DNA of 64,000 nt. It comes from Rhizophagus irregularis. Its lineage: Eukaryota. How positions within the stretch are numbered: position 1 is the first letter of the stretch; every line of letters begins with the position of its first letter. This document shows, one piece after another, positions 9,012-64,000 of the stretch. The stretch spans positions 4,154,001 through 4,218,000 of the forward strand of contig NC_089431.1 of NCBI RefSeq assembly GCF_026210795.1, given 5' to 3'. Both the position numbers and the translations under genes were made by a program. The notes beneath the pieces were generated by a model that was not told the DNA's origin, made no database searches, and saw nothing but the letters and a program-made list of their open reading frames with translations.

Positions 9012-9639
9012 AAAGCATAGATTAACTCCTGAGGACATGGTCTGAATGTATCCTTTTCTTTAATAGAGCAGAATTGTCCAGTTTCTGATTATTATTTTTT
9101 TATTTTATTTTGCCTATTATTCATTTGATACCTGGCTTATGATTGGGGCAGCATCCAGGAAATATTTAATTTTTAATGTTAAGGAATGTATTATTTATTA
9201 TTGTATTTCGAAGGATTAGGGGTTGGACACTTCAAATTTTGATTTTTGGAAGTGACAGAGTATGGCGAGTGTAGGGGCCATATTCAATAGTTTTGAATTA
9301 ATAAACACAAGTAATTTTGCAATGTATGAATTAAAATTATTTCAGTTTTCTAAGTGTATTTAAAATGTTCAATTATTTTTGAGTGATCAAAAAAAAAAAC
9401 TCATATATTGATTTGAATTATAAAGTTGAAATATACAATATAATTGAAGGTAAAGAAATTGCACAAATAAGTACCAATGTGTAATGAGCATCTATGACAT
9501 TAAAGGTATGAAGCTTAAATTTTTTTTTGTAAATCCTATTTAAAGTGATAATAACTAAATACAGTACATAATGTTATACCATCAAGACATTCAATTTATA
9601 CATTTGTTATAATGACTTCTGAATGAAAACAATACATTT

Positions 9640-13243: not shown

Positions 13244-13416
13244 CAGTCAAACCTTTATATAACGATATGTCGGGACATATATGAAATTTTTAGAAAATAT
13301 CGTTATATCGATATTTATATGTCCTCACATATAGTGGGAAAATAAAATTTTATCGGTATAACAAGTTTTTAATAATATATCGGTATATCGAATATCGGTA
13401 TATCGAGGTTAGACTG
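13244..13416. mobile_element. Tc1/pogo-type MITE, copy 2
   Basis: CAGTC..GACTG termini with TA TSD; reverse-complement copy of 3394-3577. Confidence 0.9.
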
Positions 13417-13677
13417 TACTTGGATCACCGGGATAAAAGTGTTACTAATATAACTACGCATTTTTGGATAATATAAGTTATAAAATTTTCTGCTATTTTG
13501 CACCAAGTGTAAAGTAAATTTTTTATAATTTTCATTATTTTAAATTTCATAACTTACAATCGAATAAAAAAAAATTTTATAAATTTTACATTTTACAACG
13601 TAAAAGATTTAATTAGATTTAATTTCCAATATATAAATTTTCTTGATACCACACATTATTTTTTCATTTTCTAAATT

Positions 13678-32795: not shown

Positions 32796-32941
32796 GTATC
32801 GGTATTAACAGTTAAAAAATTTATTTAATTTACTTAATTTACTCTTATTATTTGTAGTATAATTATATTTTATTTTATTAAATTTTTTTTCTTTTTTTTT
32901 TAAAACAATAAAAAAATATGTAAAAAAATTTTTAAGAATTA

Positions 32942-33406
32942 TTGCCGTTTTCAGAAATGTTGACAATCTGAAATTTTGACCATTTTATACCGAACACACC
33001 GAACACACCGAACACACCGTGAACACATACAAAAAATTATGCAAACTTGAAGTATTCATGCATAACTTTATATAAAAACTATTTTTGTCACTTTTTAGAT
33101 ATGAATAAAATTGAAAATATGAAAATTTGTACCGAACACACACCGAACACAAACGAACACACCAAACACACCGAACATTGGCAAATACAAGCAAATACAA
33201 GTGAATACATATATGCAAATAATATAATTTTTATACATTTTTTTATGCACACTACCTAAAAATATATTACTAAAGTTTTAATTTTGCTTTTTTTAAAGGA
33301 AAATTTGTTTTTTTTTAATTTTAATTGCTGTGTTCGGTGTGTGTTCGGTGTGTTCGATTTATAGAAATGATCGACATTCTAATGTCAACATTTCTGAAAA
33401 CGGCAA
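32942..33406. mobile_element. MITE with CCGAACACA subterminal repeats
   Basis: About 25-bp perfect TIR TTGCCGTTTTCAGAAATGTTGACA, TA flanks, tandem CCGAACACA motifs. Confidence 0.85.
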
Positions 33407-34460
33407 TAATCGGTTACAGAATATATATATTTTTTGTTTATGACTAGAAAGAAAGTTTTATAAATTAAATCATCGAATTCATCTTTAAAAGCGAAGAACT
33501 CATAAACAGTGATGAATTTCTATGAATAAGTAATAATTTTATCGCTAATAAATATTCCTTTTGATCTTCAACGCTAAAGCAATATTTGATTGGTCTACTT
33601 GATAAGAGAAAGACGCATTGGGACACATGTACTGGTAATTAAACAATGTGGAGAATTGTAAATCCTCAAAAATATGGGTAGTACATTTTTAGAAATTACA
33701 TGAATGAAAAAATTGGCGTATATTATTTATTTAATCACGGAGTAACCAAGTGTGATTTTCTTTGTATTATATTGTTATATTTCGTCATTGAATTTTTTCA
33801 TCACTATATTATATGTTTTGACAATTATTACTTTATATTTGTGATATTTTATTAAATATTTTAATGGTTTTGATGATGATTGAAAATTTAATTCTATTTA
33901 TATATACATATACTATATATTTTTTTCGGGAAAATATATCATTAATTCATTGTATTATTTACTTACAACTTTTAAAAAATTATTATTTAAATCAACCAAA
34001 AAAGGGTAACTGGACAATTCAATAAATAATCACGCCAGCCGGCTGAAAAAAGCCACGAATGAATTCAATAAACATTCCAAAATGGGAATCTATTATGATT
34101 GCATTTATACCAAAAAAAGATTATCATTTAAGTTAAATTCCTATGAATGGAAAATTTCATAGAGTAAAAAATCTTTGTCTCTGGAGTCCGGATATGCAGT
34201 ACACACAAACAATGATTAAAGACTTCCTTTTGTTAAAAATCGCTAGGTTTTACAAATTAAAAGTAAAAGAATCCTATACGATCTAACCATACCCCTTTGT
34301 GTTAAAAGTATTACATCTTACGATTTGAAAGTAAAATATAAGTTATAAATATAAAGAATATGATTATCCCGAACATTTCAGTTTAATTTAATTCTTTACC
34401 AAAAATTTAATTCTTTACCAAAAAAAAAAAGATCTAAAAAAAAACAAAAAATATTTTGAG

Positions 34461-36736
34461 ATGGCAAATTTAGATGAAAATAATCAAGGTGAAAGTATGG
34501 AATTATTAGGCGTGATTTATGGTATAGGAATGAACGTTAATAATATAATAGGAGTTGGTTTGTATATTTATATTTACTGATTTTAAAAAAGGAATATCAA
34601 TACTAGATTTAAAAAAATGATTTTAAAATATATATGCAGGCATTTTTACAACTCCCGGAATTGTTTGGAAACAGGTAAAAACGCCTCATGTCGTTATATT
34701 ATTATGGCTAGCCGGTGGGATTGTAAGTCTATTTGGTTCCCTTATTTATACCGAGGTAAACAACATTGTCTATATATAAATGAATTTTTTTTTAAAAAAA
34801 AAATTATGTCGATTTAACTGTTCTCTGGTTTAAAAAAAAAAAGTATGGAGCCCTACATAGAGATAATGGTGGAGAAAAAATTTATTTGGAAAAAGCATAT
34901 CCATCACCACCATTAATGGCAAGCTACCTTTTTAGCTTCATGTTCATATTGTGAGTATAATAATTATTTTCGTAAAAAAAATTTATAAACTCTCCATATA
35001 ATTAATTTATCATGGTATTATTTAGCGTGATTCGACCCGTGATTATATGCGCAGTATTACAGTCTGCTGCGCAATATACATGGTATATGTTTGTTGGAAC
35101 CTCTCCATTGGATGGAGATGACAAAATAGATCCACTCTTAAATGGTTGGCAAAACAAATTTAAACCTTACTGGTATTTATTTTAAATTTATATACAATCT
35201 GTAAATTCTTTTTATTTTCATTATTTAAAATCCTTAAATAATTTCTCTTATTCATAGGATATTGAAATTGATAGCAATTTTTTTTTTGTTATTAATAACA
35301 GGATATCATTTGTTAAATAGAAAATTGGCAAATAAGATAAATCATGGTCTTGCAATAACTAAAATGATCGTGATATTGGTAATTGCATTGGGTGGAATAT
35401 CAAAGTATCATAATAACGAAAATTGGAAGAAACCTTTAGATGATAATTCGATCAATACAGCCGTTAATTCTTATCCTATTGCAATTATTCAAATTTTATT
35501 TAGTTATAACGGATGGAACACTCTAAATTATTCTTTAGATGAATTTAGAAATCCTGAAGTAAAATTAAAACTTAGCAATATTTCTAGTATTGTAATTGTA
35601 ACGATATTATGTAAGTTTTTTTTTAAAAGTATTTTTTTTTTGAACAAAACGTTGTATCTTTTATCTAATCACTTACTTTTATCAGATTTATTGGCAAATG
35701 TTGCATTTATTACTGCTTTACCATCTGATGTTATAACAAAAACCGAACATTTTAATGAGACAATTACAGCAGATTTCTTTAAAAGTATTTTTTTTGACAG
35801 TAATGTTGCTGCAAGGGTATTATCACTTTTTGTTGTTCTTTCTGCTGTTGGTACTGCTGCAACAAGTGTTTGGAGGTATTTAGTGTAAATTTTTCATTTT
35901 TAAAAATTTTTTTTTTTTAAAAAAAAAACATATTAAAAAATTTTTTTTTGATTAGTGGATCAAGAGTTATTGTGTCAGCGGCGAAATCAAATTTTTTTCC
36001 AATCTTTTCACCACAATTAGTAAAGTGGAGAGAAAGGGAGATAAATCAGCAAGGGCAAAGAGGGGAAAATATGCGATATACTGAATATACGCCAGTTAAC
36101 GCGTTATTAGCGCAACTTGTATGGTGTATATTCATTATATTAATCGTTGGTGGATCAATACAAGTTGATAGTTTCGTGCTATTCACTTCAATAGCAACTT
36201 TTTCTGTCTGGATATTTTACATTGTTACAAGCTTGGGTTTAGTTGTAAGCATAATTCAAATTCATTTTTTTTTTTATTATTTAACATTTATTGTTATTTT
36301 TTATTCATTTTTTTTTTAAAAAAAAAATTTTTAGAAAACACGAAAAAGATATCCTGGTAACCCTCCATTCAAAGTACCACGTTCAATAATTCATTTGTTT
36401 ATAGTTTCGGGATTTCTATTTATTGCATTATCATTTGTCCCTGATAAAGAATCAATACATCCGTATATAGTTCAAATATCATTTATCTTGGTTAGTTGTA
36501 TATTTTTATTTATTGGATTTATTTGTTATTTCGGATTATTTCGACAGCAACAGCAACCGATACAACCGCAACAGATACAACTACAACCGATACAACCGCA
36601 ACAGATACAACCGCAACAGATACAACAGCAACAGATACAACCGCAACAGATACAACCGCAACAGATACAACCGCAACAGACACAGCAACAACAGATACAA
36701 CAGCAACAGATACAACAGCAACAGACACAACAATAA
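34461..36736 (+). CDS. APC-superfamily amino acid permease (LAT/Mup1-like), about 8 exons
   Basis: GMNVNNIIGVG/IFTTPG, GGEKIYLEKAY, LFSYNGWNTLNYSLDE, SGSRVI, TPVNAL, PFKVP; many TM segments; GT-AG introns. Confidence 0.9.
36545..36733 (+). repeat. 15-bp coding tandem repeat encoding (QPQQI)n
   Basis: About 12 copies of CAACCGCAACAGATA immediately before the permease stop codon. Confidence 0.95.
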
Positions 36737-44685: not shown

Positions 44686-45142
44686 CAGTCAAATTTCAAT
44701 ATACTGAACTCATGATTTGGAAGTAAAAGTTTGGTATATAGTAGAGTTTGGTAAAGCCAATTTTTATTATATACTAAACCCCTAAGTTTTTTCAGTAAAA
44801 GTTCAGTATATAAAGAAAATCACATGATTAATATCACAATTTTGGCTAAAATTAAAGATGACTTAATTTAGGCAAAAATTAAGTGGTTCTAATTCTGGCC
44901 AAAATTAATTAATTTCAGGCAAAATTGGAAAATCATGTGATTGAGTTCAGTATATCAAAATTTTTTTACTATGTTTTATAATACGTGATGAATTAATAAA
45001 AGTTCAGTATATGTTATACAAAGTTTATATAATGTTCAGTATATCAAGATATTTTTAAATATTATGAAACTGGTTTTTAAAAAAAAGTTCAGTAAGTCGA
45101 GAGTTTATTACATCATGGGTTCGTTATATCAAGATCAGACTG
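44686..45142. mobile_element. pogo-type MITE
   Basis: CAGTC..GACTG termini with TA TSD; internal AGTTCAGTATAT repeats. Confidence 0.75.
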
Positions 45143-45149
45143 TATAAAT

Positions 45150-45510
45150 TATATTATATGTAGTATCTCACTTACCTTAGATTATAGTATCATATGTAAT
45201 CTAAATATTACATATAATATGAATACCACATATAATCTAAATATCACATGTAATTTAAATATCACATATAATCTGAATATCACATATGATCTTACATATG
45301 ATCTAAATGATGTGATCTAATTACCATATATAATCTAAATAATATGGTTTAAATACCACATATAATCTAACATTTTATTATTTTTTATATTGCTTTTATG
45401 TTCTAACTATGTCTTTAAGTCTTTCTTGATATTCATATTTTTATGCTAATATACTTTTTATTACCACAATATAATCTAATTACCACACATATATAATCTA
45501 AATATCACGG
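45150..45510. repeat. Degenerate ~19-bp tandem repeat (AATATCACATATAATCTA)
   Basis: Repeated ATAYCACATATAATCT units. Confidence 0.75.
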
Positions 45511-46443
45511 TTTTCTTTTTATTTCTGAATTGTTTATATACTAAATTCTATAACTAGGAAACGGGAACCGTTGTAAGTCCAGAACGAAAAACTAAAATTT
45601 GCCGATTTCATTGGGTGACGATCACATGGCGGACAGAGAAACTCACGTGATCGATTTTTTTTCATAGTGCGTAGACATATATTGTCCTTCGCTTCGCTCT
45701 GGACAATAAAGTTGTTGACCTTTTGTAGTTGTTTAGATACCTAATTTTATGTTGAGATGCTGACTTCTTGCACCTAATTGGGTGCTGGATTCTATATTGG
45801 AGTACTTACTCTTTGTGAGCATAGCAGACATGCTCATATCACCTTACTGATTATTTACTGATTACTAGATTCTGCAAAATATCTGATTCGATTTGAATCC
45901 GTGAATTAGATCTGAATCAGATCTGGATCAAATCATTAATTTATAATCCATAAATCTGATTAGACCAAAAAATAATGATCCGATTTGAATTGGATTAGAT
46001 CTGAATCAGATCTGAATCACATTTTGAATCATTTGAATCAAGCAATAATAGCTATCCGAAAATTTTTTTTAATCCAAGAAAAATGTTTTATTTAACAATT
46101 TAACAGAAATAACATTTTTTCTTTAGAACTCTTAAAAAAACCAATTTTTTTTTAAAAAAAATCTCACTAACTCTTTAAAAAAGAGTTTCTGTAAAAAATG
46201 AGAAGGAACGTCACGAGTCTAATGATAACAAATTGGCAACCAATCAGATGCTAATAGCCTTTCTTATTGGACTCTGACCATTTTTATGAATGCCAATTGT
46301 GGTCAATTAATGGCGCAAATCAAGATAAAATCGGAATGCAATATTGGCATTAAATGGGAGAACTAATTTATATATATCAGAATTTACCAATAATATTAAA
46401 TTGTTAAAATCAATTGCATTTAATAAGTAAATTTATATAAATA

Positions 46444-48119
46444 TAGTGCTCCGAAAAAAATCTGATCTGATCTGGGATCCGCAGATTTGATCCAAGTCAG
46501 ATCAGTTTGGTTTTCAAAATTTTGATCCGTAAATCAGATCAGATTTAAAAAAAATCTGATCTGATCAAATTCAGATCAGATCAGATCAAACACAAGAAAA
46601 TCTGATCTGATCTGAACAGATTTCGGATCAGATTTTTTTTTTAAATTAAAATTTTTTTTAAAAAAAAAATTCATTTTTTTAAAAACCCTTTCCTGGACAA
46701 ATGGACGCCAGACGACCAAGATTTAAAAGAACGAACTAGGTAAGTTCATTTCTTTTTTTTTATTATTTTTACTTGAGGGAACTTAATTAACGGTTTTCTT
46801 CTTTTTTATTAGGAAGCCTAGATGAACGAAGCCTAACGACCAGGATTTAAAAAAAAAGAACGAACCTATGGTGAGTTCGTTCTTTTTTTTAAGGTTTTTT
46901 TTTATTTTTTATTTAAGGGAACGTAATTAACGTTTTCTTTCTTTTTTTTAGGAAACCTGGACGTAAACAAAGTCGTTAACGACCAGGATTTAAAAAAAGA
47001 ATGAACTATGGTAAGTTCGTTTCTTTTTTTAAGTTTTTTTTTTTAATTTACTTAAGGAAACATAATTAACGTTCTCTTTCTTTTTTTTTAGGAAACCTGG
47101 ATGTGGACGAAGCCATTAATGACTAGGATTTAAAAAAAGAATGAACTATGGTAAGTTCATTTCTTTTTTTAAGTTTTTTTTTTATTTTTACTTAAGAGAA
47201 CGTAATTAACGTTCCCTTTCTTTTTTTTTTAGGAAACCTGGACGAACGAAGTCGTTAAGATGTTAACAACCAGGATTTAAAAAAAAGAACGAACTATGGT
47301 AAGTTCGTTTCTTTTTTTAAGTTTTTTTTTAATTTACTTAAGGGAACGTAATTAACGTTCCCTTTCTTTTTTTTTTAGAAAACCTGGACGTGGACGAAGT
47401 CGTTAATGACTAGGATTTAAAAAAAGAATGAACTATGGTAAGTTCATTTCTTTTTTTAAGTTTTTTTTTTAATTTACTTAAGGGAACGTAATTAACGTTC
47501 CCTTTTTTTTTTAGGAAACCTGGACGTGAATGAAGCCATTAATGACCAGGATTTAAAAAAAGAACGAACTATGGTAAGTTCATTTCTTTTTAAGTTTTTT
47601 TTTTATTTTTACTTAAGGAAACGTAATTAACGTTCCCTTTCTTTTTTTAGGAAACCTGGACGAACGAAGTCGTTAAGACGTTAACGACCAGGATTTAAAA
47701 AAAAGAACGAACTATAGTAAGTTCGTTTCTTTTTTTTAGGTTTTTTTTTTATTTTTACTTAAGGGAACGTAATTAACGTTCCCTTTCTTTTATTTTTAGG
47801 AAACCTGGACACGAGACAAAGCTAAACGACCAGGATTTAAAAGAACGAACTATGGTAAGTTCATTTTTTTATTTTTATTTTTATTTTTTTTACTTTAAGA
47901 AACGTAATTAACGTTTCCTTTCCTTTTTTTAGTACAAGGACCAGATCTGAACCAGATTCGGATCAGATTCAAATCGGATTCAAATGGATCCGAACCAGAT
48001 TCGGATCAAATTGAACTAGATCTGATCAGATTCGGATCAGATCAGATCTATTAAAATAAAAATCAAATTAGATCAGATTTAAGTTAAATCCAGTCTGAAC
48101 CGATCTGTTAAGAGCACTA
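46444..48119. mobile_element. Non-autonomous hAT element nested in the larger hAT
   Basis: TAGTGCTC..GAGCACTA termini, perfect 8-bp TSD TATAAATA (46436-43, 48120-27), dense TCAGATC subterminal repeats at both ends. Confidence 0.92.
46700..47935 (+). repeat. Tandem array of ~140-bp intron + micro-exon units (9 introns)
   Basis: GTRAGT donors at 46740, 46871, 47011, 47151, 47299, 47438, 47574, 47717 and 47855. Each is followed by TAATTAAC, poly-T and TAG. Confidence 0.9.
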
Positions 48120-48221
48120 TATAAATATATTGCTCAAATTTATTTACATTATAAAAACAATTAAAATACTAATTTAATATATTAAATGTCCTATAATATA
48201 TAATACATAAAGTATTACTCT

Positions 48222-49095
48222 CGAAACTTATTATCTAATCCAAGAGAACCTACAAAAAGAAGTAAAATAAAACGTTAATAATGTTTCTTAAAAAAAATTA
48301 AAGTTTCAAAATTTCAAAGTTGAAACTTATCGATCAAAAGCCCAAAAGAAACTGATATCTAAAAAAAAAATAAAATTAAGCCAATTTAATTTTACCAATC
48401 CAAAAGGCAGTATTAAAGCCGATACCTAAAAAAAGAAATAAAAAAATGTTAGAAAAAGTTATTTTTTTAAAAAAAACAAAGTTTCAAAAAAACAAAAATT
48501 TTGAAATTTACCCGATCTAAGTGAAGAGTCTCACCGATACCTAAAAAAAGAATAAAAAAAAAATATTAGAAAAAAGTTTTTTAAAGTTTTGAAAGAACAA
48601 GAACGAAACTTTAAAACTTAGAAACTTATCCAATCCAAGTGAAGGGTCTCGCCGATACCTAAAAAAGAAATGAAAAAAAATATTAGAAAAAAAATTTTTA
48701 GTTTCGAAAGAACAAGAACGAAACTTTTGAAACTTACTAATCCAAAGTGAAGGGTCTTGCTGATACCTAAAAAAAGAAATAAAAAAACATTAGAAAAAGT
48801 TTTTTTTTTAAAAAAAATAAAGTTTCAAAAAAATGAAAATTTCGAAACTTACCGATCCAAAAAAAGATTCAAAAGAAGAACGAAACTTACCTATTCAAAA
48901 GAAAGGTTGAAGCCGATACATCATACATACCTAAGAAAAAAAGAAAAAAAATTAAATTTATTATTTTAAAAAAAACAAATAAGTTTCAAAGTAAAACCTT
49001 CAAAACTTACTGAATCTAAACTAAAAAATGTTTCAAAATAAATGAAATGAACGAAACTTATCAATTCAATTCAAAGAAAGCCGATATCTAAAATG
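48222..49095 (-). repeat. Tandem array of ~110-120-bp intron + micro-exon units
   Basis: On the minus strand, repeated GTAAGTTTC..CTAAT..poly-T TAG|GTATCGGC..TTGGAT units. Confidence 0.75.
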
Positions 49096-49625
49096 GAAGT
49101 GTTTTTTTAAAAAAGGAAAAAAAGTAACTTTTAAAAGCTCAAAAAGATTATCTTTAGACACAAACCATAATTGACTAGGCTGATCTGCCAATTGATTTAT
49201 TTTGCTGATTTTGCCATTAGTCAAAAATTTTGACAATTCTTTTTTTTAAAAATTCATTAAAAGATGGGTATGTTTAATTGTTTTAAAAAAAAAATTGTGC
49301 ACTTATCCCTTTTTTTATAAATTCATTTAAAAAGGGGCAGATTTTTAGATGTTAGAAAAAAAAATTTTTATTTCATTAATTTCATTATAAAGGATGTCCC
49401 TTTTTCTTTTTTAAAAATTCATTAGAGAGTGAAGTAATTATATTTAAGAAAATTTTTTTTTTTTACTAGCACTTTTCCCTTTTTTATAAATTCATTTAAA
49501 TGGGCCAATTTTTATATAGAAAAAAAATTTTATTTCATTATAAAAGAATGAATTTTTTAAAAATGTTAAAAAAGAAATTTTTTTTTATCACTGATTTACC
49601 CTCTTTATAACATTATTAATACACT

Positions 49626-51860
49626 ATGGAAGTCGGTGATGATGATAATGGTAATGAACAAGATTTTGAAAATGAAGTTTTACTGACAGTGGAAAGTTTT
49701 AAAGGTAGTATTGTCTAGATCTATTTTACAAAAGATCCTGATTTTAAAGAAAATAAGAAGGCCACCTGCAAACATTGTTCTAAAGTTTATGTGTATTTTG
49801 GGGGCAACACATCAAATTTAAAGAAACATTTAAAAAAACATAATATACAAATGAATTAAAATCATGGACAAGACATTAGAGAAATGTTTAGCTCTTCTAA
49901 GGTATATGTCTTTACTTTATTTCTTGTAAAGTTTTTCAAATTTGAATTTCCATTATTAATAATAGTTATTAATTAGTGGGTTTATAATAATGATACAATG
50001 AGAGGAAAACTTGTCCAATAGGTTATAATGAATTAACAACCCTTTAGCGTTGTTGAAGAACTAAGTTTTATTGAGTTTATGCATTCATTCCATCCCAGTG
50101 CCTTGGTATCCTTAGTAGACACGATCAAGAGAAACATTTACAATCTTTACAAAGTAAATGTTAAAAAGATTAAAGATATTTTGCAAATGGTGCCAGAAAA
50201 GATATTATTTACAACCGATATCTGGACTTCCCTCTCAACCAAATCTTTCCTGTCCTTAACTGCCCATTTCATTGATAAAGAATGAAAGTTATGAAGTGTG
50301 ATAGTTGACTTTATACAAATGTATAGATCTCACACTGGCAAAAATATTAAAAATACATTCATATTAGGATTAGAAAATTTGTCAATTGAAGATAAGGTAA
50401 TTACTTATTCTTAAATTTATTCTTAAATTTAAGTTAGAATAAATATATTTAATTTGTTTATAAATTTTATAGCTATTTGGAATTACTCTTGATAATGCCT
50501 CAAATAATCAAGTATTTATTAATGAATTAAGTAAATGGGCAGATCAAAATCATATCATTTTTAACAGTGAAAACTACTTTAGATGCTTTGTGCATACAAT
50601 TAATATAGGTGTACAAGAATTTTTAAAATATTTAGATCAAGAACTAGGTTTAAGTCAGGTTAGAATTTTTTTATTTTACTTAATTTTGGTTTATTAATTA
50701 ATAATTTAATTTATTCATTTATAGCTCAGGCAACTTCTTAATAAAATTTGTGCATCTACTCAACGGTGTGAAAAATTAAGCCTTGCATGTAAGAATAATA
50801 GTATTGATGATTTAAAACCTATAATAGATGTGCCAACAAGGTGGAATTTGATGTGTGAAATGATTTCAAGAGCTTTATTAATAAAACCTGTAAGCTTTTT
50901 TACGTACTATATTTACTGTAATTTTGTATTATTACTTATTACTTTTCAAATTAATTATTTATTGGGCTCTTGATATTACTGCAATATCTGATCATGATCT
51001 CAAAAGCTATACACTTACAGAAGAACAATGGAATGGACTTAGAAAAATAGTGGATTTTCTTGAACTATTTAAAGAAGTAACAGCAGTAATTTCAGGAAGT
51101 ACATATTCAACACTTTTTATGATGATTCTATTATTCAATTTTTTAATTAATCATGTAGAAGATATTATTGGAGATGAGAATGAAAAAGTTAATGATGAAA
51201 ATGATGATGAAAATGATGATGAGAATATACGAATTGAAAAATCAATAAAAAAAGCTGCTAAATATTGCAAAGATAAATTATTGAAATACTATGTCAAGAC
51301 AAATAACGTGTATTCAATAGCAGTTATCTTAGATCTGAGATTAAAAATACAATATTTTAAAGATGAAGAGTGGGATGATGATTTAATAAATGAAATTAAT
51401 CAAAAGTATGTACTTTTAAAGTTTTTGATATATTTATTTAATAATTATATTAATCATTAATTTTTTATTTAGTTTTGTGAATATTTTTAATTCTAATTAT
51501 GCCACTACCTCCTTAAATTCCAACATTTCCTTCACCTCAAAAGAAAAATCAGTAATATCACGTGTATTTAAACGTCACTATGGAAAATGTAGATAAATTT
51601 AAAACATATATTGCTTTACCAACTGTTTCTGGTAAAACTTTGGATCCTCTCAAATGGTCGCGAATTAATGAAACTCAATATCTACAACTTAGTAAGATGG
51701 CCCATGATTATTTAGCTATACCTGCTACAAGTGTACCATCAGAGCAGTGTTTTTCAATTTCAAAAAATTTAATTACAAACAATAGAAACTGTTTAATAGG
51801 AAAAACAATAAGAATAAGTATATATTTGAAATCCTAGAATTATTTATTGAATAATGAATA
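49626..51860 (+). pseudogene. hAT transposase pseudogene (zf-BED, DDE, dimerisation domain)
   Basis: ATCKHC..TSNLKKHL, FTTDIWTS, DNASNN, RCFVHTIN, DVPTRWN, PATSVPSEQCFS; introns; several premature stops. Confidence 0.92.
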
Positions 51861-53331
51861 AATAATTATTTATTTTTAAAATTATATTATTTTTTTTATT
51901 TTATTTTATTTTTTTCTTAGTATTATAAATATAAGTATCATGTCAATAAAGTAACTAATCTAATATCTATCTATATAACTAAAAAAGATTAAGTGAAATA
52001 TAATTAATGACTATAGAGAGGTTGGCTAAATACACTTTTTTGAATAATAGTGTAGTTAGCCGAAATATTCACAGATAACTGTAACATTTTGAATTGCTGT
52101 TTCGTATTCTTTATAAGACCCGCTTGATCAACAAATCATGTTGTACATATTGTATATCTAATAGAATTTTTTTTTTTTTTTTTTTTTGATTATTAAATTA
52201 CCGATTTATTTTTTTTTCAAATATTTATTTTTTTCATCATTTTTTTTTTAAACCTATTTTTAAATTTTTTTCCTTTTCTTTACCATTCTTTTTTTTCTTT
52301 TCCTCTTTCTTTTTGATTTGGTTTTTTTTTCACCAAGAATTTTTTTGGTTTTTTTTCATTCTTTTCCCGTTTATTTTTCCAAACTAAAATTTTTTTTTTT
52401 TATAAATAATTCTATTGTTTTAGTCTTTTAAGACCGATTTTTTTTATACTATTTTTTTTTCGGTCTTTATTTTTAGACCATATTATTAAAAATTTTTTTT
52501 CAGTCTTTTTGAACCTTATTTTTCAGAATTTTTTTTGGTACCTATTTTTTTTATGAATTCCTTTTTTTTCAAAAATTTCCTTTTTTTAAACCAATTTCTT
52601 TTTTTATCCTTTTTTTTCCCCTAATTTTATTTTTGTTTTTTTTTCAAATTTTCTTTATTGTTATTTTTTTGGGGTTTTTTTCGAATTTTTTAAAACCTTT
52701 TTTTTGAGTTGGTTTTTTTTCCAATTTGAAAATTCTTTTTTCACTTTTCTTTTTTTGGATTAGCTTTTAACTTTTTTTCCAATCTGAAAAATTTTTCTTT
52801 TTTTGGTTTGGCTTTTTTTTTGTTTTTTCCTGAACCATATTTTAAACCATTTAGATTTGGATCAGTGATCAGATTGATGCTGCAGCACCACAGTAATTCT
52901 TCTTAATAAGAATATTTTCTCTAATTATTTTTTAGGTTCAATAATAGACTGACATATAATTTACTTATTTATTTATTTTTTGTAATAATAGATCTGACAA
53001 TAGATCGGAATAATTAATTTTCTAAAAAATTTTTTTTTTCATAACAATAGATTGTTATAATTGATTTTTGGAGGATTTTTTTTTACTTTAATTTTAAAAT
53101 ATATTATTAATACTTTAAAACTAAAATGTTTGCCATGAACCCTTTTTTTAATTAAAAATATAAAATTGAATCAGATTCAAATTGGATTTAGATTAGATTC
53201 AGATTAGATTCAGATTAGATTCAGATTAGATTTAATTTGATTTGGATCAAATCCAATTTTTTTAAAATAAATCAGATTGGATCAAATCTTACTATCTAAA
53301 TCTGATCTGATCTGATCTGTGCGGAACCCTA

Positions 53332-54728
53332 CTAGTACCTGAATATTTCATAGCGTTACTGAGTTTCTTGAAGTATTTGAGGTTTCCTTGCGGGATGGTA
53401 CCACATCTAAAAACACTGTGCGCCTATCATCATTCTCCATTCTGAAAACATTTTCATTAGTTAGGACGATGGTAGACATAAAGTTCTTGTACTATATTGG
53501 TGTCTTGTGTTTTCATGGATTTCCATTATGCCACCTATTACCTTATCCTTCAAAGAGCGATACAGATTATTTCACTGGTTTTTTTCTGTGGGTATTTCCT
53601 CGAGAAGGAGAAGGACCTTGCCTTGTAACTGCGCATTGAAACTACTAAGAATCGTCTGAGGATCGCTGGTCTTATAAATGAGTTGAGTGTCTAGGATACT
53701 GCGTTAGATGAAATCTGTTATAATACTCTTATCCCAATCCTGTCCTGATTTCAGGTAAAGAATTGAGTACATCTTCCTTTCAGCAGATATACTGGCCAAC
53801 CATTTGATGATATATTTGGTGAGATTCCAATCACCTGAACACCAGATATCCTGAATATGGGAGAAGATAAACTTAACTGCAAGATGGATCTTAGATTCAA
53901 AGGTGGATATTGGACGCAAGATGTGGAGAAATCCTGGAAAGATATTCAAATAGAGTTGGCCTGTTGAGGATCTGAAGATTCGCTGTTTATGAGGATCACA
54001 GATTGCAATTAAGGTTGCCTGCCTAAACCTCTCCAAAATTTTACGATTAGCTTTTCCAAGATTTTACTATAGTTTTATTATAGTTTTGGCAAGGTTTTGG
54101 CAGTTTCGGCATTTATAATAAGTTTTGTCAGGTTTTGCTTTTTTCCAGAATTTCGCCAACTTTTTAATAAGACTTTCATATAGTTTTGGCAAAGTTTCGC
54201 TATTTCAGCATTTCGCCAACTTGCCAAAACCTTCTAGTTTCTCCAGCAACCTTAGTTGCAATACATACATCGGTATTCTCATACATAAACCACTTGTAGA
54301 TGTTGAATTCAGTCTTTTAAGAGGGACTTTGTTCAGGTTGTATGTAGAATGCCTTAGTGATTGGATGGATAAGTTTACCAATATTTTTGTCAATAATATG
54401 TTTCAAACTTTTACTATCTGGGTCCTACCAGAAAACCCCATGAGGATCTGCATAGGAAATAAAATAACTGTAAAGATACCTCTTGACTTGATTGAGATCA
54501 CTCATACTCTTTGCAGCGATAATAAGCCATTTAAGCTCATTGATACTGAAGGCTTTCTTTTATTCGTCCAAACTTGAAAATAACTTGAACTTGAGTAGTT
54601 ATTTTTTGTTCTATCAAATCGAGATCTAATTTGTAGTTACTTAATCTTCAATTGCTGAATATTTTTCCAAAGATCTGCACTCCTACCTGGCTATTTCTCT
54701 GCGGCTCAACAGACTTTCTAGGGACCAT
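53332..54728 (-). pseudogene. D5-like (SF3) helicase-primase remnant
   Basis: LYLNIFPGFLH..DIWCSGD..IKWLA..ILYLKSGQDWDKSIITDFI (decayed Walker A), LLLEE (Walker B), VLTNEN..ENDDRRTVFLDV. Truncated by the hAT end and split by a MITE. Confidence 0.8.
54010..54254. mobile_element. hAT-type MITE inserted in the helicase gene
   Basis: TAAGGTTGC..GCAACCTTA termini; 8-bp flanks ATTGCAAT / GTTGCAAT. Removing it rejoins DVCIA to CDPHKQRIF. Confidence 0.85.
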
Positions 54729-55804
54729 TGCGTGTCAGAATGATATGTTTACTTGAGTATGTTAGAGGTTTGGATTACCGCCCCTATTGGTCACTTGCTC
54801 ACTACGTTCGCTCTATATAGAGATAATCAACCTGCTAACCAAGAGTGTAAACTTACCTGCTGACCTACCTGCTGACCTACCTGTTTACTCAGTTTGCTAT
54901 CTCACTGCTTCCAATAGGAAAATGAACGGAATCCTGAAAGTGTTTCAGATTGTTTCAGAATTTTTGATCTGAGGGGTAAAAATAAAAATATTTTCTGAAA
55001 AGTATTCCTGCCTACTTTTACCAAAATTGCCGAAACATCTGAAACATTGAAATACCCCCTATGATTCTCTCTTATTTTCCTCTCTTTTTCCTTATTTTAT
55101 CGTTTTTTAGTATATTATTATATTTTAGATCTAGTTTCAGATTGTTTCAGATATATGGAGTATTCCTGAGCCCCATAGGGGTCAAATAGGTACTGTGAGA
55201 CCATGAAGCCAAGATGGGTAGAGCCTGTGACACATACATCCAGCCCGATGATAATAGAATGCCAATTGTTCAGCCAGAATTAATGTTAATTCTAGCTAAA
55301 ATGATTTATAAATTCATATTATTAGAAATTTTATTATATATAAAATTGTGATACCCATTAAATTTTTTCTATATTCATTAAGAATAATAAATATATATTT
55401 AATTGTTTCAAAAAAAAATAAAGTTTATAGGATAAATAATTCTCATTCAGTTATTTTAAACAAAAATATTTTTATATTAGTTTTTAATTTAGGCCAGTTT
55501 ATAAATTTAAGCCTGCATTATATTAGTATTAAACTGGCCAAATTCCTTTAAATTTATTCAAAACATAGTAAAATAACCAAAATTAAAACTTATATATCTT
55601 ATGTTACAGTAATTCAATTTGAAAAAACTCTTTGTTACATAAAAGTATACTGTTTAAACTACAATATTACAGAAAGTTTTTTTAAAAAATATTGATTAAA
55701 TTTTTTTTTCTATTTATTTGAAATCATATAATAAAAAGTGGTGGCTTTAGACTGTGTGCACCATATAATAAAAACTCAAATAAAAATTAAAGTACAAATT
55801 TATA

Positions 55805-56014
55805 TTATTTGTTTGTTTCATCTTCTATTTCTGGCGATTCTTTCATTCCCATTGGTTCTGATTCTTCCACTCCCATTGGTTTCGATTTTTCTATTCCCAT
55901 TGATTCCAATTCTTTCACTCCCATTGGTTCTAATTCTTCTATTCCCATTGGTTCTGAATTTTCTATTACTTCTATTTCGTTCATTTCTGCTAACATTTCT
56001 ATATTTTCTGCCAT
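55805..56014 (-). pseudogene. Acidic 8-aa repeat exon (EPMGIEES)n of a degraded gene
   Basis: 24-bp tandem repeat at ~55840-55960; upstream coding-like sequence is interrupted by a solo LTR. Confidence 0.4.
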
Positions 56015-56196
56015 TATTAGATTTTCTTCTGTTTAAATCAGTGTTTCTGGCTTAAAAAAGTCAGTGTTAGCTAACATATTCTGCTCTATATAGGTCCAAT
56101 TTGAAGTACCTCATGGATAACAAGAGACAATATTATATATCTCATCATTATAATTTCACGTTTGTATTAATTGTGAAAATTGAAGAGAGAAAGCGT

Positions 56197-56734
56197 TGTT
56201 AACCGATTTGGTACGTTGAATAGATTAACTATGATTTGCAGTCAGGGAGATTAAGTACGTTTAACTATGACTGAAATCCAATCAAACAAGACACGCTTAA
56301 AACAGGGAGTTCATTTATTGTGTAAAAGGTTATACTTTATTATAGAACTTTATAATTACAAGAATAAGAACTAAAGGAACTAATTCGAACTGAAGGAACT
56401 AAACTTATAACGAAGGAAAATACCAACGTTATTTATATAAAAGTTACTACATATAAAGATATAATAAATATAATAGATATAATAAATATAAGAAATATAA
56501 CTAATATAATAAATATAACTAATATAATAAATATAATAAATAAATTAAATATAATAAATAAAATAATTATATCGATTATATTAAATATAATTAATATAAT
56601 AAATATAATAGAAATAATAGGCTAAATAGGCTGCGGCTAGGTCGGCTTGGCACAGTTGGACACAGTAGATCCTAATTTTCCACATGATCTTCTGGCGTAG
56701 TAAATTGTAACTCTACACGTAACTAGGGGTAACA
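56197..56734 (-). mobile_element. Solo LTR
   Basis: TGTTAACC..GGGGTAACA termini, 4-bp flanks GCGT / GCAT, TATA-like and AATAAA-like motifs on the minus strand. Confidence 0.6.
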
Positions 56735-57158
56735 GCATGTTGGTCCAAATATTTTATAATAAATCTATTAACTATTATTAAAAAAATTAATTCTATTACG
56801 AAAAAAATAAAACAAATAAAAAATAAAAAATAAAAAATACGATAAATAAGTTATTAAACCTCTTCAGATCTTCAAGATGGATTATAAATATTAATTTGTC
56901 TTTTCCATTTGGTTGTTTGATCAAGGTGCAATCAATGGTACTAGTTAATATATATTCATAATATTAATATACAGTACAACAAGTAATAGTAATTTAAAGA
57001 TTTATAAATTTTTTATTGATAATTTATTATTTGTTGATGTTAAAGACATAAAAATACTGTTATTTGATTTATGATATAATAAATCTAAAAACTTTAATTA
57101 ATTTTTATAATTACTTAATGGCAAGTAATTATTATTTATAGTTTTTTAAAGTTTTAGG

Positions 57159-58265
57159 CAAATTTACTACACAATTTTTTTTTAATAATTTAACTATTAA
57201 CAATTTTTGTCTATATATAACCTAAATCGGCCTTCTAAACCTTCTTTTTAAGCTTAATAAAAGTTGTAAAGTGAGGTGAAATACATAATATATATAAAAT
57301 TCAAACTTTTAAAATATATAAATGAAAAACACTATATGATTAACTCTGTAAAATTTTATAAATTTTGCCAATTTTTACAAATGTAAAAATTCATCTATAA
57401 GATATCTATTCCAAAAAATGATTTATATGAAAAAATAATGTTTTTAATATAAATTTTATAATGTTTTCTATGTAAAAATAAAAAAAAAATCTAGGTTAAT
57501 TTATACATGAAGTCAAAATTAAAGCCTAAAAGTAGAAATATTTCGACTTGGGAAGGTCAAAAGTTGAAATTAAAGTTGAAATGATCGAAATTACATCATA
57601 GTCATGTGATTTTTATAATTATAATTTAATATAAAATTTTAAATGTAAATAATTCTGTCAATATTGATGTTACAAATATGAAATATATATCATTGGAATC
57701 CTCTCGATGAGCTGAATCCAACCGCATAAAGGTCATAAAAATCGAATCACTGGATGTGGAGTTCGTTAACTTTGAATTTTAATATTATTGTTTACTATAA
57801 AATCATATGACTATAACGTAATTTTGACCATTTCAACTTTGGAGAGGCTCAAGTTGAAATCATTTCGACCATTTCGACCATTTTGGAGGTCAAAATTAAC
57901 CAATTTCGGTTTCATGTATAGGTTAATTATTGCAATGTCACATATATAATAATTAAACAATGTTAAAATTGCATACAAATTTACACACAATTTTTTTTTA
58001 ATAATTTAACTATTAGCAACTTTTTGTCTATATGTAAAGCTTAAATTGGCCTTTTAAACCTTTTTTTCAAGATTAATAAAAGTTGTAGAGTAAAGTGAAA
58101 TATATAATATATATAAATTCAGACTTTAGAATATATAGATGAGAAACACAATGTGATTAACTCTGTAAAATTTCATAAATTTTGCCAATTTTTATAAATG
58201 TAAAAATTCATCTATAAGATAACTATTCCAAAAAATGATTTATATGAAAAAATAATGTTTTTTAA
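57159..58265 (+). repeat. ~290-bp direct repeat pair (57159-57447, 57976-58265)
   Basis: Two clearly alignable copies separated by a MITE-containing spacer. Confidence 0.85.
57502..57920. mobile_element. MITE with 8-bp TSD (hAT-like)
   Basis: TATACATGAA..TTCATGTATA termini; perfect TSD GGTTAATT (57494-501, 57921-28). Confidence 0.85.
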
Positions 58266-60431
58266 AAAAACCTATCTTTGATCGTAAAATTGAGAGAAAT
58301 AAAAAGAATATAGTGAAAGAAATAGAGTGAAAGAAAAAAATAAAAGAAATAGAGCAAAGAGTTAAAACAAAAGAAATGGAGTAATAATGAAATGGCAAAC
58401 ATAAAGAAAAGGATAAAAGAAAGTTAGTAAAAATAAAACATAGAGAACAAAAGAAACCAAAATTGGAAAATGAAAAAATACCTTAATTGCGAAACTGGAC
58501 CAGATAGATTTCCAGAGTTGTTTAGCTATTCTTAAAAACTTTAATAATATTCTCAAATTAAAAAAAACTAAAAATAAATGAAAAAAAATGAAATGATACC
58601 TTGCAACATTAAAATCCAAGAGAATGTTCAAAGCAGCAAAGCCACTTCTAAAAAAAAATAAAAAAAAATTGCATTATACGTTGATATTACAATTGTTATG
58701 CATGGTGAATTTTACCATTTTAACAAAAAATTTAAATATTTAAATATTATGGTAAAATTCACCATTTGGTAAATTTATTATCTGGTAAATTTAACCACCA
58801 GTTATTGTTAAATTAATTCTAAATATTAATTAAAATATTGCAAAAAATATGTTTTTTTACTTTTTTTTTTGTAAGTTATAATAATATTATTTGGATTTTA
58901 ACTTAAATTTATTAAATAATTTTACTTAAGCAATAAAAATAATTTTTTAATTAAAGTAAAAAAATTATGCTTTAAAAATTTCTATATATTTTAATAATAA
59001 AAAATATAATAATATTTTTATAAATGCATTTAAATTATCAGAAATTTAAGGTAAAATTCATAATTTTAACTATATTATTCAAAGTTTTAATAGTAATTGT
59101 CCAGAGTGTAGTGAAGAACTATATAATTTTATGAAGGTCAATGACAATTAGTATTACATGGCGATTTCTGGTTGTTTGTACACGTCATTTCTGATTGGTC
59201 TGCATAGAATATGTATTGAAATTTCATGTTACATCAAAAATTAACAAGTTATGATTACCTTTTTTTTTTAGATTTTGGCTAGTAAGTATATTTTTCTTTT
59301 AAATAACTTTCTTATTGTTTTCTTGGGGTTTCTGGATTTCTTATACATATCAGACTAAAGCTCTGAATGGGTCGGTTCAGTTCAGTTTTAGTAAGGAACC
59401 AGAACCGGCCTGACATTCAGTTCCAGTTTTGGTTCAGTTCTTTGGATTTAAGCCCGACCTGAAACTAGAACCGAATTTTTAACCTGAATCGAACTGAAAT
59501 TATGGTTCGGTTCTTAATTAGATAATCAAAAGATTATCGATTTTTTTTTGTAAAAAAAAAAATATTCATCCGCTTCTTTAAAGTGCATTTCTTCACGAAG
59601 AATTTTTTTTTTAGTTTATTGTTTTTTTTCGTTCCTTTTTGCGTTCCGTTTTGCTAAATTCGTACATTTCTTTTCTTTTAGGTCTCAGTTCTTGCAACTC
59701 TTCACGGAAAGAAGGTGTTACTTTTTTTTGGTTTTTTTTGGTTTCCGTTTCTAATTTCGTACACCTCTCTTCTTTCTTCGTTTAGATTTTCCGTTCCTTG
59801 AGGTTTTCCTTGCGAAAGGTTCCAGTTCCTTGGAAAGGCAAGTTTTTTTTTCTTTTTTTTTGGATCCCTTTTCTAATTTTGTACGCCTCTCCTCTTTCTT
59901 CATTTAGGTTTTCCGTTCCTTGCGGTTCTTCTTACGAGGGCTTCGGTGGCAAGTATTTCTTTTCTTTTTATTTCTTTTTTTTTTAGATTCCTTTTCTAAT
60001 TTCGTACGCCTCTCCTATTTTTTCATTTAGATTTCCATTCCTTGCAGTTCTCCTTGCGAAGGGTTTCAGTTTCTCATTGCATTTCACAGAAATGTAAGTG
60101 TATTTTTTCTTTTTTTCTTTTTTCTTTTTTTTTGGGGTTTCTTTTTCTAATTTCGTACGCATCTCCTCTTTTTTTGTTTAGGTTTCCATTCATCATGTAA
60201 AGGCTGGTGTGTATTTTTGTATTTCATTATTTCAGTTTTTTTTTTTTTGTTTCTGTTATCCTTTGTTAATTTTATCCTTCCTCTCTTTTTTTTTAGGATT
60301 TCAGTTCCTTACGATTCCATTGGAAGGTAAATAGTTAGAGTATTTCTATCGCGTCTCTTTTTTTGTTTCTTTCATTCTTCTTTACTAATTCCATCTTTCT
60401 CTAAGTTTTCAATTCTTGCGGTTCTTCGTAG

Positions 60432-60540
60432 AAGTCTATCAAATGGAGCTGTTGCAGTACGACTTACCGCACCAGTTATCATACCAGCGAGAAGATATTT
60501 TAGATCAGTTGGTGGTATTATTACTTCACCATCCATATTA
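60432..60540 (-). other. Captured fragment of a Ca-binding mitochondrial ATP-Mg/Pi carrier (SAL1/SLC25A24-like)
   Basis: NMDGEVIIPPTDLKYLLAGMITGAVSRTATAPFDRL matches carrier helix 1 and the start of the Px(D/E)xxK signature. No other carrier sequence nearby. Confidence 0.8.
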
Positions 60541-60620
60541 TCACCTGTATTATCGCCTGTATTATCGCCTGTATTATCATCTGTATTGTCACCTGTATTA
60601 TCACCTGTATTGTCACCTGG
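60537..60620. repeat. 12-bp tandem repeat (TATTATCRCCTG)n
   Basis: About 7 copies; reads (GDNT)n on the minus strand. Confidence 0.9.
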
Positions 60621-62067
60621 GCTATGACTTTGTAGTATTCGAAATTTCTGGACCGCAGACATGGTTTGATTTGGTCTACAACACCAAAGGCGGCTTTTCT
60701 TTAGTTTTATTTCAAGGATCTTTAGTTCCTTTCACCAATTCTTATAGATTTTCATTCTTTGCAGGTAAGATATTTTTCTTTCTTTTTTTTTTTTTGTTTA
60801 TTCATTATCCTTTGCTAATTTCGTCCTTCTCTTCCTTCAGGCTTTTGCTTCTTTTGCGGCTCTTCATGAGAAGGTGGGTATTTATGATATAATTTTTTTG
60901 TCTTCTTCTTTATCCTTTGCTAATTTCGTCCTTCTTTTCTTTTCCTTTAGGTTCTTTGCGATTCTTTGAGGATACAGGTGTTTATTTTTTTTATTTTCTG
61001 TATTTTTTGTTTTCTTAAATTTAGGATTTTGATTCTTTGTACTCTTCAGAGAATGTATGTTTATCATTTTTTTCTTTTTTCGTATTCTTTTTTTGTTCTC
61101 TTGCTAATTTCGTCATTCTCTTTTTTTTTCTTTTTTAGATCTTGATTTTTTTGCACTTTAAAAGAAGCAATGAATTAATTTAACAAAGGAAATAAAGGAA
61201 ATATACGAAATGAAACAAAAAATAAAAAAAATTGAACCACCTACTTTTCTGTAATCTTCATTTCTAATGATCTTTATGGATTCACGGGTAAGGTAGTTTC
61301 TTTTTAATTTTCTTTAATTTATTATTTATTTATTTTTTTCTCTGTCCGCCATATCACTAATATTAACAATTACTTTATAATATTTTTTTAATTCCCTATC
61401 AAAAAACTGTCATGTCACATGTTCATGCGCCAATATAAATGAACTACCCAATATTATTTTTAACGTCCAAATTCTTTTTTTTGATATATAAATGGCAAAA
61501 AAATTAGCATAAAAGTGGCCATTAACTATATTAACTATGTTGCTGAAGCATAGGACTGTGCAACTGAAATTTTGCCTAGCATATTTTTAATTTTTTTTTT
61601 ATTTTATAGTTTTTTTTTAATTAAAATTAGAAATAGCTGTGCGTGTGACATGTAAGGATCGTATTCTTTATCTTCTTATATAAAACATTCAATTATACAA
61701 AATGTACGAAAATTAATTTCTAACAATAAAAAAAATTTTTTTTTGATTGATATTGCCGATTTTGATTGATGTTGCCAAAACATTGCGCCAATCAATTTTT
61801 TTTGCCAAAACATTGCACCAATCAATTTTTTTGATTGATATTGCCGATTATTCTGATTGATTATTACCGATTAAATATTGTGATTGATATTGTCATATTG
61901 CCGATTGATATTGCCCAATTTTTTTAGTAAATATTTCTATTTAAATGGTGTATAATATATATTTAAAAAAAAGATTTTGAGAAAAAAAAAAAGAAAAATT
62001 ATTTTTACATTAAATAATAAAATTTCTTTGATCCATCTTTCACCCCTCTTCTTTTCAAATACTTCAG

Positions 62068-64000
62068 ATGAGTAATATTGATATAGATTCTGAAAGTTTA
62101 TCTGATAATGGTATATCACGTGATGCAACACCTCATGTTAGCGAACCAGAAGATATTCCACAGTAGAGTAGTAGAAACTATAAATCTGTAGTTCATGATT
62201 ATTTTACTTTAAATAATACATAAAATTGATATGATTGCAAGCATTGTAATAAAAATTATAAAATAGCTAAAGATGGTTCAACATCTAGTTTATGGAAGCA
62301 TATTAAAACTAAACATAATGATATATATTCAGAAATAAGTCAATTAACCAGTGCATTAAATAAACTTGAAATCTCAGAGCCATTGGTATATAGTATTTTA
62401 TTTTTAATTTATTATTTTATATTTTATAATATATCTGATATTAATTAAACCAATTATATTATAGATATTTACACAGGAATCTTTTCGTAATGATTTAGTT
62501 TATTGGATTATTAGTGATGAACAGCCTTTTACCATAGTTCAAAATTTATTATTTCAAAAAATGATAATACGTCTTAATTCTGAAGTTAAAATACCTTCAG
62601 CTGATACAATTCATAATGATATTATAAAAATTTTTAAAGATGAAAAAGAATTTATAAAAAAAAAATTACAGGTTTGTTATGTATTTAAATATATTAAATT
62701 ATTACAAATATTTTATTTAATATATTATTTTATAAATTTATAGGAAATACCAAGCAAAGTTTCTATTACACTAGATGCATGGACGTCAAAGAATCAAATT
62801 TCTTTTTTAGGAATAACTATTCACTGGATTACAAATGATTGGAAACTTGAAAACACTACTCTTGATTTTTCTCATATAGAAGGACCACACTCAGGAGAGA
62901 ATCTTGCATCCAAATTGTTTGAAGTTTTGAAGGAATTTGAACTTTTACAAAAAGTAAATATTGCTAAATACTTTATTTAATAAATTTTTTAATTTTAATT
63001 TTTTTTGAAATACATTAGATATTAGGTATTAGTACCGACAATACGTCTAATATGAATAAGATGTTTAGTAAATTTGAAAGTATTTGTGAATATGAAGGAA
63101 TTGAATTTATTGCTAAAAATCAACGTATTCGTTGTTTAGCTCATATAATTAATTTAGCAGTACAAAATATACTTAAAACATTAAAGGAAGAAGCTCCTGA
63201 AAATGAAAATGAAATTTTACAAGAAAATACTTCTACTATTACATTAGGAGTTATTGCAAAAGTAAGTTATATAATTTATAATTAATTTTACTTATAATAA
63301 ATTATTAATTATTAATAATTATATTAATGAATTTATTACATTTTTATTAATAGCTTCGAACATTAATAATAAAAATTAGAGCATCTTCTCAAAAAAAAGA
63401 AAAATTTAAAAGACAATGTATTGCTTTAAATATAAAGCCATTAGAATTAATCCCTGATGTCAAGACAAGATGGAATTCTACACATAATATGATAGAAAGG
63501 GCTATTATTTTACGTGAGGTAAAAATATTTTATAGTATATAAAAAATATATTATATATATTAATACTTATTAGTATTTATTTATTAGCCACTATATAATT
63601 TTGCTGTAACAGATAAAGAACTTTTATCTTATGTATTAAATGATATAGAATGGAAGAAAATAAAAGAAATATAAGGTTTATTAACAGTAAATATATAATT
63701 TATATAATTGCTATTAAATTTTTTACATTATATTAATTTTTAATTAATTTTTAGTGTTTTGAAAAAGCAACCTTAGAGATGAGTTCATCATATTTTCCAA
63801 CACTTGGCCAGACTGTGCCAATATATAATTATTTAATTGATAAGATTGAAGATTTTCTTGATAAAGAAACTGATACAAAATCAGAAGATGTTGTTAATGC
63901 CACAAATAATGCCAAAAATAAGTTACAACAATATTATCTGAGTTCAGATGGACTTGTTTATATAATTGCAACTAGTATGTAATATATATATTTAGTTAAT
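62068..64000 (+). pseudogene. hAT transposase pseudogene, runs off the window
   Basis: CKHC..STSSLWKHIKTKH (zf-BED), ITLDAWTS, HSGENLA, TDNTSNM, RCLAHIINL, DVKTRWNST; in-frame stops in exon 1. Confidence 0.92.

Follow-up and report, generated by a model that had tools for sequence, protein, structure and literature searches.

Introduction

hAT transposons, including non-autonomous and Pack-type members, have short terminal inverted repeats (TIRs), 8-bp target-site duplications (TSDs), subterminal repeats, a transposase with zf-BED, RNase-H and dimerisation domains, and captured host fragments. Introner elements and maize Ds are DNA transposons with splice signals, and they are removed as a single intron through terminal splice sites. 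Here we analysed 64,000 nucleotides of Rhizophagus irregularis DNA (assembly GCF_026210795.1, contig NC_089431.1, positions 4,154,001 to 4,218,000 of the forward strand; hereafter the window, with position 1 as its first letter). In this AT-rich fungal DNA, three tandem arrays of intron-like units lie inside hAT elements that we call A, B and C. The elements share the ordinary features of the hAT family, including a captured host fragment in C, and they resemble introners and Ds in being DNA transposons with splice signals. Unlike in those elements, the signals are internal and repeated, the exons would stay in the RNA, and the ends of A are TIRs with a TSD.

Three described systems match the arrays in part. 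As described in the available sections of their report, amphioxus mirages (in Adh3 and the globins BflGb6/9) are minisatellite-like duplications of an exon-intron boundary, with units of ~150 bp, concerted evolution and many AG/GT (PMC3087553). Mirages repeat one boundary in a host coding gene, whereas here whole non-coding exon-plus-intron units are repeated in mobile elements of several families and divergent lineages. The VANC targets of Arabidopsis VANDAL elements are also tandem repeats in DNA transposons that vary by family, and the available text ties them to methylation loss (PMC5735166). VANDAL encodes an anti-silencing protein; in contrast, no anti-silencing open reading frame (ORF) was found beside a transposase in A, B or the visible part of C, which is incomplete in the window, the elements here are hATs, and the unit has an intron architecture. 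The antisense long non-coding RNAs (lncRNAs) of Blumeria hordei transposable elements (TEs) likewise come from transposons of a fungus; their exons are non-coding and their splice sites lie on the antisense strand (PMC10648671). Those lncRNAs are demonstrated by RNA, average 2.3 exons, rarely exceed five and, in the accessible part of the paper, have no tandem unit, whereas the splicing of the arrays here is predicted. Of these systems, mirages are the closest to the arrays in form and VANC target arrays the closest in proposed role, and the arrays fail a defining feature of each.

The main texts of two papers on R. irregularis TEs, in the portions available and supplements aside, contain neither 'intron' nor 'splic' (PMC8647823, PMC11075540). 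We found no description of such arrays in the literature searched, most subscription journals and all supplements being outside its scope. The hAT membership of the elements is ordinary, and the internal exon-intron module is apparently undescribed in that literature. These families may already be listed, without remark, in a curated repeat library for R. irregularis.

Results

Three tandem arrays of intron-like units

Array 1, in A (46740..47932, + strand), has nine intron-like units with introns of 73-83 nt, exons of 55-66 nt and a period of ~140. Array 2, in B (48222..49110, − strand), has seven units, located at ~49010-48250, and reads away from the B transposase. Array 3, in C (59614..61138, + strand), has 11 units with introns of 47-90 nt and exons mostly of 25-63 nt, and it reads in the same sense as the C transposase. 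The unit layout is the same in all three: exon, donor, branch motif, pyrimidine tract and AG, repeated head to tail. Intron-like lengths within the arrays match those of host introns (65-102 nt). The features of U2-type introns (GT or GC donor, branch, tract, AG, host-like length and spacing) are thus found in the arrays, and are partly lacking in array 2. Array 3 has nine GT and two GC-AAG donors, and its acceptor is AG in 11/11 units.

We scored the arrays with a splice model trained on the window's own gene introns, 24 of which were located out of 28 tried. Strict intron chains numbered 7, 2 and 3 in arrays 1, 2 and 3, where shuffled sequence averaged 0.11, 0.04 and 0.01. For each array, all 300 dinucleotide shuffles stayed below the observed chain count, and the opposite strands of the arrays held no strict chains. 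The shuffle means imply a chance of ~1% or less for a single unit, the units not being independent of one another. A T-rich degenerate repeat region of B (52150-52900), used as a negative control, had no splice signals and scored 0 on either strand. We therefore rejected chance motifs in T-rich DNA as the source of the arrays.

A preliminary description of this DNA had named three arrays of the same architecture on these strands and had named chance motif frequency in shuffled T-rich repeats as a possible refutation; the unit counts and the shuffles bear the description out. Its claim that the arrays are unrelated in sequence holds in part. The unit profiles of the three arrays gave no cross-match at E<=0.01, and cross identity among the three units is 51-54%, compared with 45-51% for shuffled sequence. 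Arrays 1 and 2 do, however, have one donor extension and one hairpin at the branch site in common, with a marginal model match (E 0.38).

Several acceptors in array 2 (48250-48931, − strand) have GT immediately after them, in one case GTATGT. An acceptor directly followed by GT is the layout of a recursive splice site, and such sites in array 2 could skip units whose donor reads AT. Array 3 is bracketed by a 24-bp inverted repeat (left arm 59564..59587, +; right arm 61152..61175, −). The repeat spans the first to the last array-3 exon, so the spliced RNA could pair end to end. The captured host fragment lies antisense within an array-3 exon (60432..60539, − strand); its 36 aa are 89% identical to an R. 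irregularis EF-hand mitochondrial carrier, and a 12-bp tandem repeat (60536-60619) sits at its edge.

The array-1 unit in soil-metagenome loci

An exact 21-bp array-1 pattern retrieved nine metagenome loci, eight of them distinct because L002 and L005 represent a single locus. The alignments to array 1 have ~69-80% identity in eight loci, and the array-1 unit recurs in these contigs at ~70-78%; L007 corresponds to a fragment of A at 93% identity. The loci have several end-repeat types, and the position and orientation of the array relative to the transposase vary among them. In L004, the array lies antisense at the 3' end of a full hAT transposase, and more donors continue toward the gene. L005 is a 1,091-bp hAT with an 8-bp TSD, and its array lies upstream of a transposase remnant, in sense. 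L001, L003, L006 and L008 have hAT-like ends with differing repeat words; the L006 end resembles that of C. Other intron-unit types are also present in L003, L006 and L009. Within the array-1 family, units group by element lineage.

These comparisons support a real, transferable internal module that recurs across hAT elements. The preliminary description had argued from recurrence for a functional module. A recurrent and conserved module is indeed seen in the eight distinct loci, with GT and AG kept; its function is putative. In L009, a gene with SWIM and zinc-knuckle matches, both below the cut-off, stands beside the array; we take this gene to be MULE-like. The intron-unit module may therefore also occur in MULE-like elements. 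Downstream of this SWIM/zinc-knuckle gene with CCGCAAT repeats, the minus strand of L009 has three types of intron unit, ~1900-2970 from the far end.

Two loci show further nesting. In L003 (242-670), an A-like end adjoins a B-like right end with two introns of its own that read toward the TIR, which echoes the insertion of A in B. On the minus strand of L005, the array-bearing hAT sits in decayed CACTA-type sequence (Transposase_21 below the cut-off). Scans of viral contigs with two patterns from array 1, one from array 3 and one transposase gave no matches, and neither did a scan of prokaryotic genomes with a donor pattern. The 21-bp hairpin had one prokaryotic match (L010), an isolated hairpin between bacterial genes, which we judged to be chance despite an RNA-model E of 6e-6.

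Conservation of splice signals

We compared 35 array-1-family units, nine from the window and 26 from seven metagenome loci, with L002 and L007 excluded as duplicates. The donor is GT in 35/35 units, a partly circular count because the donor search sought GT variants. The acceptor count is not circular: the tract ends in AG in 31/35 units and in AAG in one more; of the three units that fail, two stand last in their array. The donor variants are GTAAGT, GTATGT, GTGAGT and GTTAGT. The last exon base (−1) is G in 29/35 units, the base past the tract-ending dinucleotide is G in 21/34, and the branch-to-AG spacing is 20-29 nt. Array-3 units have a mean identity of 77% to their consensus, yet the GT or GC donor and the AG are kept in 11/11; a crude neutral estimate for the 44 array-3 splice positions is ~1e-5.

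No frame is kept alongside these signals. Array-1-family exons are 49-66 nt long, 20 of 27 are not a multiple of 3, and there is no frame preference. Spliced in silico, array 1 has no open frame among the three, and array 3 has 5-11 stops per frame. A conserved reading frame across units or copies was not found in arrays 1 and 3, and a weak protein search with one array-1 frame returned no relatives. The array exons are apparently non-coding.

CpG content and RNA structure

The CpG observed/expected ratio is 1.06-2.43 in 9/9 arrays measured (1.94 in array 1), 0.17-0.48 in the three hAT transposases measured and 0.52-1.04 in four host genes. Within elements, the array and the transposase differ in CpG with p = 9e-5, 0.014 and 2e-5, values uncorrected for repeated units. 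According to the available text of one study, CG methylation takes part in TE silencing in R. irregularis, and many copies of recent hATs have low methylation (PMC8647823). Together with this methylation, the high CpG content suggests that the arrays were long protected from methylation or selected for CpG.

The array-1 unit is built of inverted repeats and folds into hairpins; one loop contains the donor, and the branch motif is at a second loop. In the array-1 family, 94% of hairpin cells pair. Covariation is weak: two-sided changes occur in 3/17 pairs, 7/500 shuffles reach the score, and the signal is within what relatedness alone would give. We therefore do not claim the RNA structure as proven. 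Arrays 2 and 3 lack hairpins of comparable stability, and Rfam at its gathering score gave no matches in 45800-64000.

RNA reads over array 1

Reads were placed on 45800-48440, which covers array 1 and the last array-2 units, with T-runs skipped. From the polyA run X20, 311 of 11.05 million reads were placed, 284 of them only partially; 261 were loose-ended reads from two A/T-run chance sites. From run X23, which is possibly DNA, 154 reads were placed, 153 partially. Reads over array 1 were about equal in both orientations. The A family is nearly silent in the placed reads, and the visible reads are unspliced. These unspliced reads could come from residual DNA or from host-gene read-through, and the strain of the run may differ.

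Gene models that thread array 3

An array-3 peptide frame matched PKY52181.1 (R. irregularis) and RGB23977.1 (R. diaphanus); the other six of eight matches were unrelated repeat proteins and were dropped. Both models thread array-3 exons, several of them at junctions predicted here. One exon common to both is read in different frames, so the two are best seen as spurious proteins, a kind of multi-exon artefact that the preliminary description had anticipated. A related stretch of the captured carrier peptide is also present in PKY52181.1, in the sense frame of the array.

PKY52181.1 continues into the C transposase through an acceptor directly before the ATG, and this acceptor is present in the window. 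The predicted joint (61254..62067, + strand) runs from an exon end with a donor near 61293 to a CAG acceptor with a pyrimidine tract just before the transposase ATG. The joint in PKY52181.1 is a second copy in which array 3 and the transposase are linked, which makes a predicted spliced leader plausible. Array 3 is the best candidate among the arrays for such a leader.

The elements that carry the arrays

Element A (46444..48119, + strand) is a non-autonomous hAT of 1,676 bp with short TIRs, B-like subterminal repeats and no transposase. Its exact 8-bp TSD has identical copies at 46436..46443 and 48120..48127. A is inserted within B, which spans 45866-53331. The left end of B (45866..46045, +) has a degenerate TIR and ATCTGA/GATTCA subterminal repeats, and its right subterminal repeats and TIR are at 53150..53331 (−); we looked for a clean TSD at the ends of B and found none. 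The hAT transposase of B (49626..51837, +) contains introns and is broken by stops, with zf-BED, hAT RNase-H and dimerisation domains (Pfam PF02892 and PF05699 over the cut-off, PF14372 under it). Directly to the right of B (53340-54600) there is decayed coding-like sequence with no Pfam match, possibly another mobile-element remnant.

C has a TIR-like start followed by CGGTTC/ACTGAA subterminal repeats (59356..59520, +); its right end and TSD fall outside the window. Its hAT transposase (62068..64000, +) is stop-broken and continues past the window edge, with zf-BED (PF02892) over the cut-off and a weak PF14372 match. One C transposase exon shares 38% identity with P0002, which is a full-length transposase of the B family, and a hAT transposase exon from the window matches an R. 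irregularis protein at 100% over 91% of the query. The combination of short TIRs and subterminal repeats, a hAT feature, is present at both ends of A and B and at the left end of C.

The ends of A align to those of B with local scores of 92-132, compared with a shuffle maximum of 54-60, and the C ends are unrelated to either in the same comparison. Because A is nested in B and shares its subterminal repeats, there are two end-families rather than three unrelated elements. The earlier claim of three unrelated hAT families gives way to two end-families plus shared motifs. The placement of the arrays just inside the subterminal repeats has to be relaxed for array 2, which lies ~530 bp inside the left repeats of B after A is subtracted.

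In the DNA-like run X15, contigs begin or end at the A borders 46444 and 48119, and eight contigs exit A at 48119 into differing flanks. Summed depth in this run, which is not a copy number, is 8,900-38,600 at the A ends, up to 80,700 in the array and ~100-240 on single contig pieces of the flank, so that A exceeds these pieces by a factor of tens to hundreds. A is clearly a multi-copy mobile family.

Other features of the window

An apparently non-coding region at 8330-9200 (+) has a few intron-like and GC-richer exon-like pieces and may be a further element whose non-coding part is spliced. A related short element with GATATACC repeats is present as two inverted copies ~10 kb apart (3394-3541 and 13253-13420), and 44690-45150 may hold a further relative. 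An element at 32940-33420 has ACCGAACAC repeats at both ends and no visible intron array, with a related partial copy at 5560-5800. Four paralogous genes form a cluster (1-1220, 27400-28750, 29500-30850 on the − strand and 31260-32790 on the + strand); from their look, they are presumably BTB-TLDc proteins. A 15-bp coding tandem repeat with 12 copies is located at the end of a permease-like gene (36548-36731).

Discussion

We tentatively favor a reading in which the arrays are spliceable, non-coding gene-mimic cassettes of Glomeromycotina hATs, with an anti-silencing or expression role. That the array units are introns by origin and have been kept by selection is a narrower claim, and a likely one. 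The proposed course begins with what the arrays show, a unit of intron architecture, tandem and head to tail, with no conserved frame. One exon-intron unit of a non-coding transposon transcript would have been duplicated in tandem; each lineage would then have re-amplified or homogenised its units, which would also have moved from one hAT family or position to another. We consider this step strong. It would account for a sense leader in C and L005, a divergent array in B and a 3' antisense array in L004. Selection would hold the GT, the branch site and the AG while neighbouring bases drift. In the weakest step, repeated spliceosome recruitment on a CpG-rich patch of low methylation would protect the element in cis from silencing or would raise transposase output where the array is a leader. 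A gene mimic of this kind would keep the interior of the element unmethylated and have its transcripts handled as normal pre-mRNA. In Cryptococcus, the available text reports that introns raise expression cumulatively (PMC5851062). A more far-reaching version is doubtful: a portable anti-silencing cassette made solely of splice substrates, invented several times and swapped between families, which would draw in the spliceosome so that the host takes the element for a gene, with hairpins over the donor and branch site that tune how fast each intron is released.

Several observations weigh against the gene-mimic cassette. Stable hairpins over the array-1 donor and branch site would hinder splicing. 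None of the 15 listed joints (of 18) over array 1 has GT..AG ends, and in run X20 the depth is 17 within intron 1 and 21 in the following exon, with junctions crossed unspliced. With so few reads, possible DNA or read-through and T-runs skipped, this weakens splicing and does not refute it. Four of ten donor-like copies in array 2 read AT instead of GT (one A/T-rich false match was dropped), and the copy of A in the window carries CpG-to-TpG variants. In the array-1 family, exon motifs are as invariant as the GT (18 invariant columns), so something besides splicing may act on these exons. In the accessible part of a study on S. pombe, foreign DNA was silenced irrespective of introns (PMC13402810).

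A simpler account, which we consider unlikely, is mirage-like tandem duplication of an exon-intron unit in an untranslated leader, with splice sites kept for the spliceability of the mRNA or by youth, and no further role. Array 3 splices on paper to the transposase ATG, the L005 array precedes its transposase remnant in sense, units homogenise inside lineages, and the available text on amphioxus mirages reports that their AG/GT left regular splicing undisturbed (PMC3087553). This would leave the CpG excess unexplained, and intact signals are also found where no transposase mRNA depends on them: in the antisense array of L004, in the divergent array of B and in non-autonomous elements. Several unrelated unit types are alike in this respect, arrays 1-3 and the extra types in L003, L006 and L009. 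A rather improbable alternative treats the arrays as DNA binding sites, in which GAACG/CGTTC palindromes bind the BED domain of the transposase or another protein, while an ancestral intron left the splice signals behind as passengers. The retention of GT and AG amid flexible flanks and the 20-29 nt branch-to-AG spacing would then be unexplained, and array 3 has the same architecture without these palindromes. The strongly conserved exon motifs do resemble the subterminal repeats, the unit is composed of inverted repeats and the reads over array 1 are unspliced. In the sections available, hAT N-terminal domains bind subterminal motifs (PMC8097297) and VANC targets are variable tandem repeats (PMC5735166), but the elements lack a detectable anti-silencing ORF, as far as A, B and the incomplete C go. 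Hairpin changes that tolerate G-U fit RNA somewhat better, with the covariation being weak.

The hairpins over the array-1 donor and branch site, the introns retained in reads and the L004 array running antisense into the transposase 3' end would also suit a self-limiting device, in which poorly spliced, hairpin-masked introns stall the spliceosome or yield antisense RNA for RNA interference (RNAi). Small interfering RNA triggered by stalled splicing is known in Cryptococcus (reviewed in PMC5851062, in the part available), and spliced TE-antisense lncRNAs are described in Blumeria in the available text (PMC10648671). We regard this device as improbable: A is abundant in the DNA run, the CpG content makes the arrays look shielded from decay and not targeted, and arrays 2 and 3 lack comparably stable hairpins. 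Capture of a host gene with repeated coding micro-exons, of the Pack type and now decayed, is very improbable and largely refuted. Its appeal comes from the captured host fragment in C, the 6/10 array-3 exons that are multiples of 3 and the existence of public protein models. Those models, PKY52181.1 and RGB23977.1, disagree on the frame of the same exon, both spliced arrays are interrupted by stops or closed as described above, the array-1 frame has no protein relative in the weak search, and the captured carrier fragment is antisense.

The arrays explain why Rhizophagus annotations contain one kind of spurious 'orphan' gene model with many exons, with two examples here, and they provide a marker for classifying some unclassified repeats of Rhizophagus genomes. 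They also offer a natural, many-copy test of intron protection against silencing in a fungus with both CG methylation and RNAi. If the gene-mimic cassette is true, it would be a protein-free transposon counter-defence that exploits a proposed rule, 'spliced RNA = self'.

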